This document shows positions 1 through 4,614 of a stretch of DNA of 52,678 nt, piece by piece. Numbering within the stretch: the first letter of the stretch is position 1; each line of letters opens with the position of its first letter. Source of the DNA: Candidatus Omnitrophota bacterium (GTDB lineage: Bacteria > Omnitrophota > Gorgyraeia > Duberdicusellales > 4484-171); NCBI GenBank assembly GCA_043815185.1, contig JBDRJF010000013.1:1-52678 (forward strand), read 5' to 3'. Below the pieces are notes generated by a model that was not told the origin of the DNA, ran no database searches, and saw only the letters and a list, made by a program, of their open reading frames with translations. A program made the position numbers and the translations under genes.

Positions 1-1377
1 TTCAACCCCGCCGACTGCACAGAAAACTGCTATAGCTCCGTCTAAAACCCGCAGGCTTCGCTCAACCTCAGCGGTAAAATCTACATGGCCAGGAGTATCA
101 ATAATATTAATTCGATAATCCTTCCAATGGCAGGTAGTAGCGGCAGAGGTAATTGTAATCCCCCGCTCTTGCTCCTGCTTCATCCAGTCCATCTGGGCTT
201 GGCCATTATGTACTTCGCCGATCTTATGAGAACGGCCGGTATAGAAAAGAATCCGCTCGGTTAAAGTGGTTTTACCAGCATCGATATGGGCCATAATCCC
301 GATATTTCTTACCTGCTCCAAGGCTATTTTCCGCAGCGGAAGCGGCTCAGCTTCCCTGGCCTCAGGCAAGGGGGCTGCTTCGGGAGTTAAGGCTTCCTCC
401 TGATTAGGCCCGGGACTTTGCTGGGGTAAGTTCTCTATCTCCGCTTTAGCTTCTTCTCCAGGCTCTTCACTAACTGTCAGGGGCTCAGCTGAGCTGGGCT
501 TATCCTCTTCCGGCTTAAGTTCAGCAGAAACAGCTTCTTTAAGTTCTTCTTCCTCTGGCTCAGCTTCAGCTTTAAGCGAAATTTTGAGTTCCGAATCTGC
601 CCCGCCCTCTTTAAGCTGATGGACTAAACGCATTCGCTCCTGATCTTTATTTTCAATCTCCTTCTCTTTTAGCTTAAGCTCTTTCTCCCTTATCTCTAAC
701 TGTTGCTTTAATTGAGTATACTCCTCCTTCAAGGCGTTATGAGTATCTTTAAAGACCCAATCGCTCTCTTTTTCTTTCTGCTTTAACTTCACCACCTCAT
801 CTTTATACTTATTGGCTTCAGCCTGCAGTTTAATTATTCTTTCATTAGCACCCTTAAACATCCTCTCTAATGCTGCCTTTGACTCTCTTAGCTCCCTAAT
901 GTCGGTTTCCAAAGATTTTACTTTTCGCTGGGCTTCGGTAATCTCTCTTTTTAAATCGACGTTATTGGTAAACTCCTTCTCTAATTGTTTCTCCTTATCG
1001 ATAAGTTTACTTTTAAACTCCCACTCCGGTCCTTTTCCTCGCTTTATGAGCTTCTGCTGATAATCCAGCCACTTCTTGCTCTGCTTATCCTTTTCTCTTA
1101 ACTCCAGCTCCCGATTCTTTAAACATTCAAGCTCTTTCTCAAGAGCCAGGTTATAAGCCTTGGTCTTCTTAAAATCAGTAAGATTGTTTTTGAGCTCAAA
1201 GATTTTTTTTCTTAAAGTCTGAATTTTTTCGGTTAGGACTGCAATTCTCTGCTCAGCGGATCGAGATTCAGCCTTCAACTTAGCCTTACGTCTGGTATCT
1301 TTACTATCTCCGGAATTAATAGCATAAATAACCAGGATTACGGATGTGGTTAATAATATCCAGACAAAAGTAATCAT
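1..1377 (-). CDS. fusA: Elongation factor G with ~347-aa N-terminal extension (TM helix, coiled coil, Pro/Glu/Ala linker); 3' end lies outside the window
   Basis: Not in the ORF track. Manual translation shows no stop between the ATG at 1377 and position 1. The C-terminal part reads [26 protein letters not shown]...[46 protein letters not shown] (EF-G G1/G2/G3 motifs). The N-terminus is [22 protein letters not shown]. Confidence 0.9.
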
Positions 1378-1407: not shown

Positions 1408-1854
1408 TTAAGCCTGGGCAATAGAACGGACAATATCCTTCTTAGTAATTACCCCTACCAATTTTTCCCCGGCTACTACCGGACAGTAATAGCTGGATTT
1501 ATCGATCATAGCGGTGGCAGCCTCTTCGACCTCCATCTCGGGAGTTAAAATAACCATATCTTTTTCTAAAATATCACCGACTTTGGTAGCAGTAATTTTC
1601 TTGATCTCCTCCTCGAACCTCTTTACTCCCAGAGTGAGAAAACCCAAGGAAATATGTAAAAAAGTGGGAAGATGCACTTTCTTGTCCTGAAAAATAACTC
1701 CCTCTTCACCGACAATACCCAGCAAGTTACCGTTAGTATCTACCACCGGGGCGCCGCTTATATTCTTTTCTAAAAGCAATTCGGCTAATTTATGCAAACT
1801 AGTATCGGCTGTGACTGTAATCGGATCTTTGGTCATTATATCTTTTACCTGCAC
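1408..1854 (-). CDS. CBS-domain pair protein
   Basis: VKDIMTKDPITV...SGAPVVD...LVGVITKKDI gives two CBS repeats. The start is moved to the GTG at 1854 because GAGGAGG lies just upstream (1860-1866). Confidence 0.85.
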   Translation of the reverse strand: MQVKDIMTKDPITVTADTSLHKLAELLLEKNISGAPVVDTNGNLLGIVGEEGVIFQDKKVHLPTFLHISLGFLTLGVKRFEEEIKKITATKVGDILEKDMVILTPEMEVEEAATAMIDKSSYYCPVVAGEKLVGVITKKDIVRSIAQA

Positions 1855-1866
1855 TTGAACCTCCTC

Positions 1867-1939
1867 AATGATCTCCGCCAAAGGCGGGGAGAATTGATCC
1901 CGAAGTCGCGCTGGGTAAATCTCCTGCGACGAGGGATAC
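1867..1939. repeat. Double-hairpin intergenic element, copy 1
   Basis: AATGA-[TCTCCGCC AAA GGCGGGGA]-GAATTGATCCC-[stem-loop]-GGGATAC. The junction sequences are shared with the copy at 19836-19945. Confidence 0.7.
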
Positions 1940-1984
1940 ATTATTAATCAACCTACGAGACGGGATATATTATTAATTAACCTA
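1933..1984. repeat. Imperfect tandem duplication (2 x 23 bp, period 29)
   Basis: GGGATACATTATTAATCAACCTA (1933-1955) and GGGATATATTATTAATTAACCTA (1962-1984). Confidence 0.7.
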
Positions 1985-2545: not shown

Positions 2546-2839
2546 TTAAGAAACTATATCTATGAACAGCTCTTTTACAAATTCAACCACCGGATGGGTA
2601 TTATTTTTCTTGGCCTGAGCAATAAAGCGGGGGAGCCTCTGGGGGGCTTCTATCTTTTGACCTATCTTAGCTAAGTTAAAATCAACCTGGCCGTCAAAGT
2701 ACTTAACTAAATCCTCTATGGACTCATCGCTGTTGTAGCTATTTCGGTAGTCTCCCAGCTGCTTGAATTTAAATTTCTCAGTGTAGCTCTTCAATCTAAT
2801 CTCCTTATCATCACAAGGATTATTCAGGTCGCCTTCCAT
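2546..2839 (-). CDS. Hypothetical protein
   Basis: 97-aa ORF co-oriented with its neighbours; no recognisable motif. Confidence 0.5.
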   Translation of the reverse strand: MEGDLNNPCDDKEIRLKSYTEKFKFKQLGDYRNSYNSDESIEDLVKYFDGQVDFNLAKIGQKIEAPQRLPRFIAQAKKNNTHPVVEFVKELFIDIVS

Positions 2840-2869
2840 ATTGTTTGATTCTGTTTAAAAAGAGATTGT

Positions 2870-3103
2870 TTACATCTGGGCTGAAGCTTCTTGGATCAAA
2901 GGCAGAATTCCCTCAACCTCTTCTTTGGCTAAACGGCCTAATTTTGTAAACCGGTACTCACCTTCAGCAGATTGATTCTCCCGGGAAACCTGTAGTTTCT
3001 TAACTCCCTTGTTATAAGAATAAACACTAACCGTGATCTTAGTTCCCTCACCTTCCCAAACCCTGGAAAACAATTGTTGGTCTAAATTACTATCATACGG
3101 CAT
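2870..3103 (-). CDS. Small conserved hypothetical protein, possibly PC4/YdbC-like nucleic-acid-binding fold
   Basis: Strong RBS (AGGAGG). The pattern ITVSVYSYN-G-KKLQVSRE...FTKLGRL followed by a C-terminal helix resembles PC4-like proteins (inference). Confidence 0.6.
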   Translation of the reverse strand: MPYDSNLDQQLFSRVWEGEGTKITVSVYSYNKGVKKLQVSRENQSAEGEYRFTKLGRLAKEEVEGILPLIQEASAQM

Positions 3104-3123
3104 AGCCCCTCCTTTTTTAGTAT

Positions 3124-3153
3124 ATAATATACTAAAGCACTAACCTCTGTCAA
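3124..3153 (-). promoter_or_regulatory. Putative sigma-70 promoter
   Basis: TTGACA (3153-3148), then TATATT/TATTAT 16-18 bp downstream, ahead of the gene starting at 3103. Confidence 0.5.
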
Positions 3154-3166
3154 GATTAGTTAATAT

Positions 3167-3886
3167 TTACTCCTGGCTACAATGCGCACTATGTTTCTCC
3201 ACAAAACGGGCAATTTGCTCCTGCTTTTCGGGAATTATATTATGGAACTCTAAGCCCATTCCCGGATAATCTTCAGGTTGAATCTCTTGATCGACTACCC
3301 AAACTACCTTAACATCAGCTTCAATAATCCCGGGCTGGGAATGAAAGTCAATCCGGGTAGCCAGTAAATCTCCGATTGAGAATATCTTATCACTAACTAT
3401 TAATGCCCCTTCGGCACTTAGATTCACTATCTCCCCCTTAAAGAAAGGGTGATCCAAAAGAAGCTTTTGCCGGTATTCAATAGTAGTATTAAGGGGTATC
3501 CGTTCAAACCTTCTTCTGGAAGGTGATTGAGCAATCTCCTCGATTAACCGCTCCTGCTTTATAGCTGTTATTGCCTGCTCTTCGCTTAGATAAAGGTGAA
3601 AAACTCTGTCCAGACCGACAATTGAAAACAGTCTCCTTATATGCACAGGGACATTATAGAATTCAAGCCGCCCCTTATGATTTAAAACGTTTTTATAGAT
3701 GACTGTAATCAAAGAAATTCCCACATAATCAACCAAATTTACGCTGGAGAAGTTACAAACAATATCTTTGGTCTGATGATTAAGAATCCAACCTACAGTC
3801 TCAACAAAATCTGAAGCGTCAATACCAATACTACCTTCTAATTCTAAGACAGCTATCCCCTCTTTTATTTTAATTTTAATCCTCAT
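3167..3886 (-). CDS. STAS (anti-anti-sigma) + PilZ domain protein
   Basis: N-terminal STAS pattern (LELEGSI...VNLVDYVGI...FSIVGLDRVF). C-terminal PilZ with RRFER (RxxxR) and NLSAEG (NxSxxG). The ATG at 3886 overlaps the uppP stop (ATGA). Confidence 0.8.
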   Translation of the reverse strand: MRIKIKIKEGIAVLELEGSIGIDASDFVETVGWILNHQTKDIVCNFSSVNLVDYVGISLITVIYKNVLNHKGRLEFYNVPVHIRRLFSIVGLDRVFHLYLSEEQAITAIKQERLIEEIAQSPSRRRFERIPLNTTIEYRQKLLLDHPFFKGEIVNLSAEGALIVSDKIFSIGDLLATRIDFHSQPGIIEADVKVVWVVDQEIQPEDYPGMGLEFHNIIPEKQEQIARFVEKHSAHCSQE

Positions 3887-4614
3887 ACAATTAAAGTGAC
3901 TAAAGCCATCAATAAACAATAATAGGCGAAGTTTTTAAACTTTGCGCTTACCAAAGCCCTTTTAACTATTTTCAAAGCTAAAAGGCCAAAGGCAAAAGCA
4001 GCTATAAAGCCTAAACCCAGGCTTGAGACAGCAAGTTCGAATTCTCCCAGGGCTTTAAACTCAACCACAAAAGCCCCCAAAATAAGCGGTATTGCCATCA
4101 AAAAGGATAAACTGAAAGCATCGATAGGTTTAAATCCTCTTCTTAATGCCCCAACAATAGTGATCCCCGCACGGGATATGCCGGGAAAAGGAGAAATCCC
4201 TTGTAAAAAACCTAAAAAAAATGAATCTTTAAGGCTAATGCTCTCGATACTGCGCTTTGAGGAGCCCGGCCGGACACTGAGTAGTATTCCGGCATTGATT
4301 AAGAAACAAAAAGCCAGTAAAAACCTTGTGCCGAAGAAACTTGATAAGTAAAATTGAATTCCCAGCCCCATAAGACCACTAATCAGAGTAATTAACAGAA
4401 TGTTGAGTAAGAGTTTCGGCTGAGATAATAATCGAATCTGCTTAACGAAAAAAACAATTATTGCCAGAAGAGTTGCTAAATGGAGAAAAACGAAAAAAGA
4501 AAGATAATCTTCCTTAATTACTAGTAATTTTTGCAAAAGATATAGGTGGCCGGAACTACTTATCGGCAGGAATTCGGTTAAACCCTGTACAATGCCAAGA
4601 AATATAAATTTCAC
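3883..4614 (-). CDS. uppP: Undecaprenyl-diphosphatase
   Basis: GIVQGLTEFLPISSSGH and PGISRAG motifs; polytopic membrane protein. Confidence 0.95.
   Translation of the reverse strand: MKFIFLGIVQGLTEFLPISSSGHLYLLQKLLVIKEDYLSFFVFLHLATLLAIIVFFVKQIRLLSQPKLLLNILLITLISGLMGLGIQFYLSSFFGTRFLLAFCFLINAGILLSVRPGSSKRSIESISLKDSFFLGFLQGISPFPGISRAGITIVGALRRGFKPIDAFSLSFLMAIPLILGAFVVEFKALGEFELAVSSLGLGFIAAFAFGLLALKIVKRALVSAKFKNFAYYCLLMALVTLIV

Follow-up and report, generated by a model that had tools for sequence, protein, structure and literature searches.

A putative membrane-tethered elongation factor G and its anchor-stalk module in Omnitrophota

Architecture of the gene

In textbooks elongation factor G (EF-G) is a freely diffusing translation factor. 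The stretch of DNA analysed here, called the window, is contig JBDRJF010000013.1 (52,678 nucleotides) of assembly GCA_043815185.1 from a Candidatus Omnitrophota bacterium, and at its edge lies the 5' part of a gene in which EF-G stands behind a predicted membrane anchor, a helical stalk and an acidic linker. On the minus strand, to which all window features described below belong, positions 1377..1 are one stop-free frame of 459 codons that begins with the ATG at 1377 and is still open at the window edge; an earlier note on this DNA had already observed this frame and that the open reading frame track had missed it at the edge. The whole tethered EF-G gene has about 1045 codons, the first 459 of which are in the window (1..1377).

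The source assembly (G000; 1.08 Mb, 31 contigs, 87% complete), in which the window is contig C13, carries the rest of the gene at G000:C28:14467..12566 (minus strand). C28 ends in the same 141 nucleotides with which C13 begins, and the continuation is a 633-residue frame that ends at a stop at C28:12566 and has 47 residues in common with the window piece. The two pieces were analysed as separate sequences. In the tree of the EF-G part the C28 piece pairs with the long, fused form of a genus-mate, G004 (94% identity, support 100), and the gene order CBS, long EF-G, response-regulator/GGDEF, MscS, which is found on a single contig of G001, is matched in G000 across C13 and C28; tree pairing and synteny therefore indicate that C28 is the true continuation of the window gene. 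Searching related genomes for EF-G proteins with an N-terminal transmembrane helix and coiled coil, as the earlier note had proposed, yielded 20 complete relatives from 5 families (1036-1156 residues counted from the start codon), and these, together with the window gene, constitute the reference set of 21 long forms used throughout.

The protein starts with a single predicted transmembrane helix (residues 1-23, start codon included; 1309..1377), supported by hydropathy, by an AlphaFold2 helix at residues 2-22 and by the alignments, in which all homologues have a hydrophobic N-terminus. Only one hydrophobic segment is present: the best 19-residue Kyte-Doolittle window covers residues 2-20 (2.42), and windows above 1.6 start only at residues 1-5. 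The hydrophobic helix of about 20 residues and the basic residues after it, both seen before, are thus borne out by hydropathy and by a K/R-rich flank, with 8 K/R against 4 D/E in residues 23-45. From the missing N-terminal charge and this basic flank we infer, by the positive-inside rule, an N-out/C-in topology. A cleavable signal peptide was considered and rejected on composition and hydropathy, there being no charge before the hydrophobic stretch, which is about 21 residues long and has the K/R cluster after it.

In the residues that follow, 24-257, K accounts for 20%, E for 15% and L for 12%, and Pro is absent. AlphaFold2 was run on alignment A1 (the G domain, a fragment here, was poorly modelled, as expected) and predicted, beyond the anchor, one helix at residues 26-114, a Gly-Pro break and a second helix at residues 117-257, with predicted local distance difference test (pLDDT) values of 75-93 over the helices except for dips near 115 and 205. 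Stalk helix 1 (1036..1302; pLDDT 80-93) ends in a conserved Trp, W103 (1069-1071), found in at least 90% of the alignment rows. Stalk helix 2 (607..1029) was delimited by AlphaFold2 and by its heptad periodicity: none of 2000 shuffles attained the 3.5-residue hydrophobic periodicity seen in residues 117-257, and for residues 26-114 the shuffle fraction was 0.056. The coiled-coil-like character that had been attributed to the whole E/K/L-rich stretch is therefore significant in helix 2 and only marginal in helix 1; on this modelling the stalk is probably rigid, alpha-helical and coiled-coil. Two conserved motifs are located in helix 2. Motif 2 (consensus KEKxLEKEFSKNV in alignments A1 and A2, residues 128-140; 958..996) has K128 and F136 invariant over 21 rows, at least 90% of which also have K130, L132 and V140, and K128 and F136 are kept in at least 90% of 35 rows that include stand-alone forms of the anchor-stalk protein. 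Motif 3 (consensus S-x-W-V-S-K-x-E-Y...L, residues 205-216; 730..765), in which S205, S209 and L216 are nearly invariant, lies at residue 187-206 in all 21 homologues.

Stalk and EF-G are connected by a Pro/Glu/Ala-rich acidic linker (residues 258-346; 340..606), recognised by composition and low pLDDT. It is 89 residues long, against a first estimate of about 90, with 27% E, 15% A, 13% P and a net charge of -19, and it is predicted to be disordered (pLDDT below 50 for residues 258-349); throughout the reference set the linker measures 82-211 residues, with a net charge that is negative in every case (-5 to -42). Using textbook dimensions, a fully extended stalk would reach up to about 34 nm, to which the linker would add about 5 nm (root mean square), or about 32 nm of contour. 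The coordinates proposed at first reading (coiled coil at about 1300-610, linker at about 600-340, G domain from about 336) differ from these by a few bases at most.

The EF-G moiety

The window ends within the start of EF-G (residues 347-459; 1..339), which comprises the N-terminal strand, the P-loop AHIDAGKT, switch I and DTPGH. Pfam GTP_EFTU matches residues 355-459 (E 1.2e-44), in accordance with a conserved G domain from about 336, and residues 1-346 gave no Pfam match above cut-off. About 70 columns of the window's EF-G part are invariant in the 21-row alignment, and AHIDAGKT and DTPGHVDF both fall within the window piece. The C28 part (633 residues, model positions 67-690) scored 918.6 bits against the TIGR00484 EF-G equivalog (cut-off 659.4), and the window part supplies the first 66 positions of the model, which are missing from that piece. 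In the G004 orthologue, whose identity over the window part is 81%, the domains GTP_EFTU, EF-G_D2, EFG_III, EFG_IV and EFG_C were found at residues 354-1031, and the same five are precomputed for homologues P0002-P0009.

We then counted, among the 21 long forms, patterns that we take to represent the GTPase motifs G1-G5 and the loop tips of domain IV. G3 and G4 were present in 21/21, G5 in 20/21 and the P-loop in 20/20 of the rows covering it; the domain IV tips were found in 21/21 (loop 2) and 19/21 (loop 1). Moreover, 326 of the 704 EF-G columns are at least 90% conserved in this set, and only 5 columns, all with conservative changes, distinguish the long forms from the short paralogues called type A below. 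The best PDB matches of the C28 part are the canonical EF-Gs of Thermus, E. coli and S. aureus, with 759 bits for that of T. thermophilus. Judging from these intact motifs, the EF-G part is apparently complete and catalytically competent.

Other identities were tried and rejected: EF-G2 (NF009377, 459 bits against a cut-off of 890), Bacteroides EF-G2 (NF058620, 448 against 1000) and tetracycline ribosomal protection protein (NF012153, tet_protect, 322 against 775); LepA-type and TypA models also score far below cut-off on the C28 part. The usual traits of EF-G, that is a soluble protein starting just before RNIGI and encoded in an rpsL-rpsG-fusA-tuf locus, are replaced here by a 346-residue extension with a transmembrane helix and by a CBS gene upstream. 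It had also been remarked that no ATG is located at the usual EF-G start, and in the window none occurs in the 16 codons before RNIGI, where a TTG is found at -4.

Conservation of the fusion

An initial search of 41 related genomes gave full-length frames in most of them, and a separate protein homologue search gave 8 long relatives. In each of the 21 long forms one frame runs from the anchor to the end of EF-G, with the start codon directly before a hydrophobic helix of about 20 residues; this codon is ATG in 20/21, and G020 has a GTG one codon before an ATG. The earlier note had envisaged relatives with a stop or a separate start between the two parts, and in this set none was seen. Some relatives do possess an anchor-stalk protein without EF-G, which reflects loss or absence of the EF-G part and not a hidden stop between adjacent genes. 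Among the 401 genomes sampled from the phylum, 150 bear the anchor-stalk module and 61 of these have frames of 993-1158 residues (hand count from the table). The single-cell genome of Candidatus Omnitrophota bacterium SAG AM-311-N09 (L116) also has anchor, motifs, linker and EF-G in one 788-residue frame, open at the locus end, and therefore metagenome binning is not the cause of the fusion; L116 was the one informative locus of a search on G-domain patterns that returned mostly ordinary EF-Gs.

We also evaluated selection along the gene, in two close pairs of genomes (G000 against G004, and G001 against G007). The ratio of nonsynonymous to synonymous substitution rates (dN/dS) was 0.23 and 0.10, respectively, in the stalk, 0.35 and 0.13 in the linker, and 0.08 and 0.03 in the G domain. 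From these ratios it is evident that the N-terminal extension is translated and under purifying selection.

No conserved internal start was found among the 21 homologues: 12 of them lack any ATG, GTG or TTG over the 16 codons that precede RNIGI, and candidate starts coincide in position in at most 3. The TTG at -4 of the window recurs in 2 other homologues (3/21), and the one ATG, in G011, is at -2. All 8 of the short paralogues begin with M-[AS]-R-x-[VI]-[ED]-L, the Met being 10-11 residues before RNIGI; since the long forms keep residues homologous to this start, without the Met, the fusion point corresponds to the very N-terminus of EF-G.

Concerning read support, parts of the stretch occur in 5 public groundwater-metagenome runs from 3 studies, and the Logan contigs, which are short, of low depth and thin over bins 470-603, contain no insertions or deletions; the best-matching run may be the source sample. 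Given the comparative evidence from relatives, a read error at the window locus would be irrelevant.

One homologue, G349:C86 (L093), is split inside the G domain into frames of 413 residues (locus 1387-2628) and 616 residues (2665-4515); the split could be programmed, or it could come from a frameshift error or mark a pseudogene.

The anchor-stalk module

By its profile and motifs, the anchor together with the stalk is a protein family of its own. The module is defined by an N-terminal transmembrane helix, a stalk of about 200 residues and the motifs KxW, KEKxLExEFxKNV and SxWV[SP]KxE[YF], all present in the window gene, which the module profile matches with E 1.4e-72. Using the 346-residue extension as a query, 93 of the 401 genomes were matched at E<=1e-5, and with profile A2 150 were matched at E<=1e-8. 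The occurrence of A2 matches follows families: 59/60 genomes of f8, 14/16 of f1, 13/13 of f28 and 13/15 of f25 are positive, and there are none in f6 (0/25), f9 (0/16), f13 (0/11) and f16 (0/11). The module matches listed are all from the same class as G000, with one match each in most of the genomes listed. Most of the lower-scoring A2 matches are stand-alone proteins of about 220-270 residues; when 20 short-frame loci were examined, 15 were complete stand-alone genes, 3 were cut by contig ends, 1 was split (the G349 locus) and 1 was ambiguous.

In the genus g72, 4 genomes have the fused form (G131, G222, G300 and G301) and 10 species have, at the same locus, the form without EF-G, preceded in most by a RarA/MgsA-type gene and followed in nearly all by a cyclophilin-type gene (neighbours identified by Pfam for G311 and by sequence patterns for the others). 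The presence of both forms at one locus indicates that EF-G has been lost or gained within a genus.

Outside the sample, a profile search of 1.84 billion representatives retrieved 823 relatives at E<=0.001 and 87 at E<=1e-30, most of them short or fragmentary. Nothing specific for the module was found in Pfam, NCBIfam, a PDB profile search or the ESM Atlas, the PDB giving only generic coiled-coil matches. P0140, P0128 and P0088, from other Omnitrophota, were rejected as members and treated as compositional matches, the sequences of P0140 and P0088 being without the three motifs. These three proteins have an N-terminal anchor, a long repetitive coiled coil and a C-terminal MshEN domain (with PilZ in P0140 and P0128), which bind cyclic di-GMP; the logic of the tether is the same and the head is different. 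We propose that the module is an autonomous family, older than the fusion and proper to this class of Omnitrophota, to which EF-G was added in some lineages.

Paralogues and gene history

A second, canonical fusA, which the earlier note had suggested looking for, is present on G000 contig C1 in the order rpoC-rpsL-rpsG-fusA-tuf-rpsJ. Over the EF-G part, this copy, type B (694 residues), and the long form are about 51% identical. That the genome has a membrane-anchored, stalked paralogue of EF-G in addition to a canonical fusA is supported both by the conserved single frame and by the str-operon copy. Many relatives have another soluble copy, type A (about 700 residues), about 67% identical to the long forms. 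In the tree type B forms one clade and type A with the long forms another, both with support 100. Type A is missing from the G000 bin (87% complete), and G010 and G025 (97% complete) have a long form and type B and no type A. G013, a single contig, was considered as a genome with a long form as its sole class-I EF-G and was rejected, since this assembly is also without tuf and hence incomplete.

A quick tree nests type A inside the long forms. However, approximately unbiased (AU) tests reject neither the long forms as one clade (p 0.358) nor type A as one clade (p 0.531), so that type A may derive from the long form or the reverse. Within genomes, the first 450 nucleotides of the EF-G region are unusually alike between long and A copies, which reflects either gene conversion or assembly collapse. 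In G004 (L026, L046) the long and short copies are 85-93% identical over these 450 nucleotides, with an 80-nucleotide exact run, and in G021 (L031, L054) they share an exact run of 928 nucleotides; the rest of the gene is 55-73% identical in both genomes. This likeness probably explains the contig breaks inside the G domain in G000, G033, G204 and G274.

Gene neighbourhood

As the earlier note had observed, the gene is not preceded by rpsL/rpsG. The upstream gene (1408..1941; Pfam CBS) encodes a CBS-pair protein and ends 30 nucleotides before the tethered EF-G, with which it is probably co-transcribed; no terminator-like site was found between them by a promoter and terminator scan that was itself not above shuffles. 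Farther upstream, 3167-3919 encodes a STAS plus PilZ-type protein, for which TIGR02266 and anti-sigma antagonist models are below cut-off and whose G001 equivalent matches Pfam STAS and PilZ. Directly downstream, on G000:C28, are the response-regulator/GGDEF gene (L067:11301-12497) and the MscS channel gene (L067:10238-11287); the GGDEF and PilZ-type genes around the locus are related to cyclic di-GMP.

In G017 the order is the same as in G000 and G001 (long EF-G, GGDEF, MscS), without the CBS gene. An M48 (Ste24/HtpX-like) metalloprotease gene lies 2-3 genes downstream in G001 (L070:3420-4649), G017 (L075:3124-4359) and G010 (L072:5074-6312), thus recurring in three genera of the family, and is not found at the G000 locus. 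Where G001 has M48, G000 has an IS200-like Y1 transposase gene (L067:7342-8058 on G000:C28) near MscS and tetratricopeptide repeat genes, possibly the trace of a local rearrangement. The tethered EF-G of G010 is about 290 nucleotides downstream of rplM-rpsI (L13, S9; L072:10785-11613) on the same strand, the sole ribosomal neighbourhood seen for a long form. Across families the neighbours vary (RarA, cyclophilin, UvrD, GGDEF, MscS).

Proposed function

We consider it probable, from the sequences compared, that the gene encodes a bitopic inner-membrane protein holding an active EF-G in a zone beneath the membrane. This reading builds on the observed architecture, conservation, selection, EF-G motifs and paralogy; the topology, oligomeric state, ribosome engagement and biological role that it assumes are inferred. 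The single N-terminal helix would anchor the protein and leave almost nothing outside the cell, and the cytoplasmic helical stalk, of about 235 residues, would be followed by the acidic disordered linker and then by the complete EF-G. Working beside the soluble fusA product of the str operon, the tethered form would supply GTP-dependent translocation, and possibly recycling dependent on ribosome recycling factor, to ribosomes beneath the membrane, for example those making membrane or exported proteins.

Some observations weigh against this reading. In the genus g72 the EF-G part is absent at the same locus in the 10 species examined, which implies that the module works without EF-G and that EF-G is dispensable there. 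Omnitrophota cells are reportedly very small, and the reach of the tether, estimated geometrically at 35-50 nm, corresponds to 55-88% of the cytoplasm in cells of 100-150 nm radius, so that it may concentrate or retain EF-G rather than restrict its place. Moreover, no RNA run is listed among the public runs containing the stretch, and the neighbourhood, which is not conserved beyond the family, offers no functional support.

The EF-G head could instead act mainly as a GTP-gated adaptor by which ribosomes or polysomes are bound to a membrane scaffold, and not as a working translocase. A scaffold role would agree with a module that is an autonomous, conserved, single-copy family in 150/401 genomes, with the constrained length of the stalk (the position of motif 3 in 21/21) and with the ability of the module to lose EF-G at the same locus. 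However, drift or loss of GTPase residues would be expected in a pure adaptor, whereas the catalytic motifs and those at the tip of domain IV are all retained and the 5 differing columns are conservative; wild-type EF-G, moreover, leaves the ribosome after GTP hydrolysis and would be a poor static anchor. We therefore regard such a hook as unlikely.

It is quite improbable, in our judgement, that the membrane serves as a reservoir from which EF-G is freed by proteolysis of the linker, or bypassed by an internal start giving a soluble product, so as to adjust soluble EF-G levels. The linker is indeed long, disordered and variable, but no conserved cleavage motif was seen in its alignment, and the M48 protease gene, close to the locus in three genomes, is not the adjoining gene in G000, G013, G025 and G037. 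The TTG 4 codons before RNIGI in the window could serve as such a start, but it is not conserved, and soluble EF-G is already present. E. coli LepA/EF4 is reportedly stored at the membrane and would be a precedent of a kind.

The work of the stalk module could also be unrelated to translation, for example in scaffolding of the envelope or of division, with the role of EF-G moonlighting or accidental. In its favour, no relative of the module in Pfam, NCBIfam or the PDB gives a functional hint, its stand-alone forms are common and its neighbours varied; against it, the fusion has been kept in 5 families or more, and its EF-G, which is fully canonical, is under strong purifying selection, which would be hard to account for if the role had no link to the ribosome. 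We hold this explanation, too, to be quite improbable. Finally, an assembly chimera or a lost stop joining two unrelated genes, suggested by the contig end inside the gene and by the 928-nucleotide identity in G021, which shows that assemblies can tangle, has next to no probability and is already refuted by comparative data, given that the linker/EF-G junction (nucleotide 340) is well inside contig C13, that the same fusion recurs in 61 genomes and a single-cell genome, and that dN/dS is below 0.4 in every part.

Going farther than a sub-membrane EF-G, the module might be a dedicated membrane organiser of translation, which would hold EF-G covalently where fused and recruit EF-G or ribosomes non-covalently where unfused, and would create a zone sustaining the hours-long, membrane-coupled synthesis of the giant membrane-anchored proteins that are typical of these bacteria; we put this forward as a speculation, with the odds well against it. 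Giant proteins of this kind have been described in an Omnitrophota preprint (bioRxiv 10.64898/2026.06.07.730766). In G000, contigs C21 (1-13140) and C17 (2-9592) are single open frames from end to end, of 4380 and 3197 residues, and are probably pieces of one or more such genes.

If a canonical EF-G is anchored in this way, and has long been maintained so across a whole class, elongation or recycling would be spatially organised in some bacteria. Such a protein would be a natural system in which to study the distance over which EF-G needs to diffuse, and to see if ribosomes at the membrane draw on a separate pool of factors. There may also be a connection with the production of very large membrane proteins by Omnitrophota that are ultra-small, predatory or episymbiotic. 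Through the gene fusion, moreover, a family of membrane coiled-coil proteins that had no annotation before is linked to translation.

Comparison with known systems

No description of a membrane-anchored EF-G was found in the full-text literature, a search that covered articles and not the supplements of preprints. The available passages of the Omnitrophota preprint cited above treat EF-G only as str-operon content of variable regions and use "membrane-anchored" for giant proteins, and neither these passages nor those of PMC12583861 mention a tethered EF-G. What is new here is the recognition of the module as its own family, the phylum-wide survey, the fused and unfused pairs at the same locus, the selection analysis and the paralogue history.

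Canonical EF-G, known from the structures of T. thermophilus (1efg, 1dar), E. coli (4v7d, 7n2c) and S. aureus (2xex), has in common with the tethered form the five domains, the GTPase motifs and the domain IV loops; unlike it, the tethered form extends about 346 residues farther at the N-terminus, lacks a separate start codon for EF-G and is encoded outside the str operon. Extra EF-G-family copies beside the main fusA, as here, are also represented by EF-G2 of Thermus (1wdt), by Bacteroides EF-G2 and by Tet(M)/Tet(O). However, EF-G2 and Tet(M)/Tet(O) are soluble and divergent, while the tethered form matches the EF-G equivalog instead.

LepA/EF4 and FtsY are translational or targeting GTPases found at the inner membrane through peripheral or regulated association, FtsY with an acidic N-terminal region. 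They resemble the tethered EF-G in being membrane-associated GTPases, but their folds and functions differ and none is a covalently anchored EF-G. The engineered L9-EF-G chimera of ribosome crystallography (4wpo, 4wqf and others among the PDB matches) has, as here, a protein fused to the EF-G N-terminus; this chimera reportedly binds the ribosome, so that an N-terminal fusion is no bar to ribosome binding. Unlike that chimera, the Omnitrophota protein is natural, and is tethered to the membrane and not to a ribosomal protein, by means of a stalk and a linker.

ZipA of E. coli is the membrane tether of FtsZ, in which an N-terminal anchor and a charged segment are followed by a long, flexible linker rich in Pro and then by a globular head at the C-terminus. 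By architecture it is the closest analogue, with the same logic of anchor, linker and head and with its bulk in the cytoplasm. No ZipA family was found among the Pfam matches at E up to 1, and unlike ZipA, the tethered EF-G has a translation GTPase, and not an FtsZ binder, as its head and a long conserved helix as its stalk.

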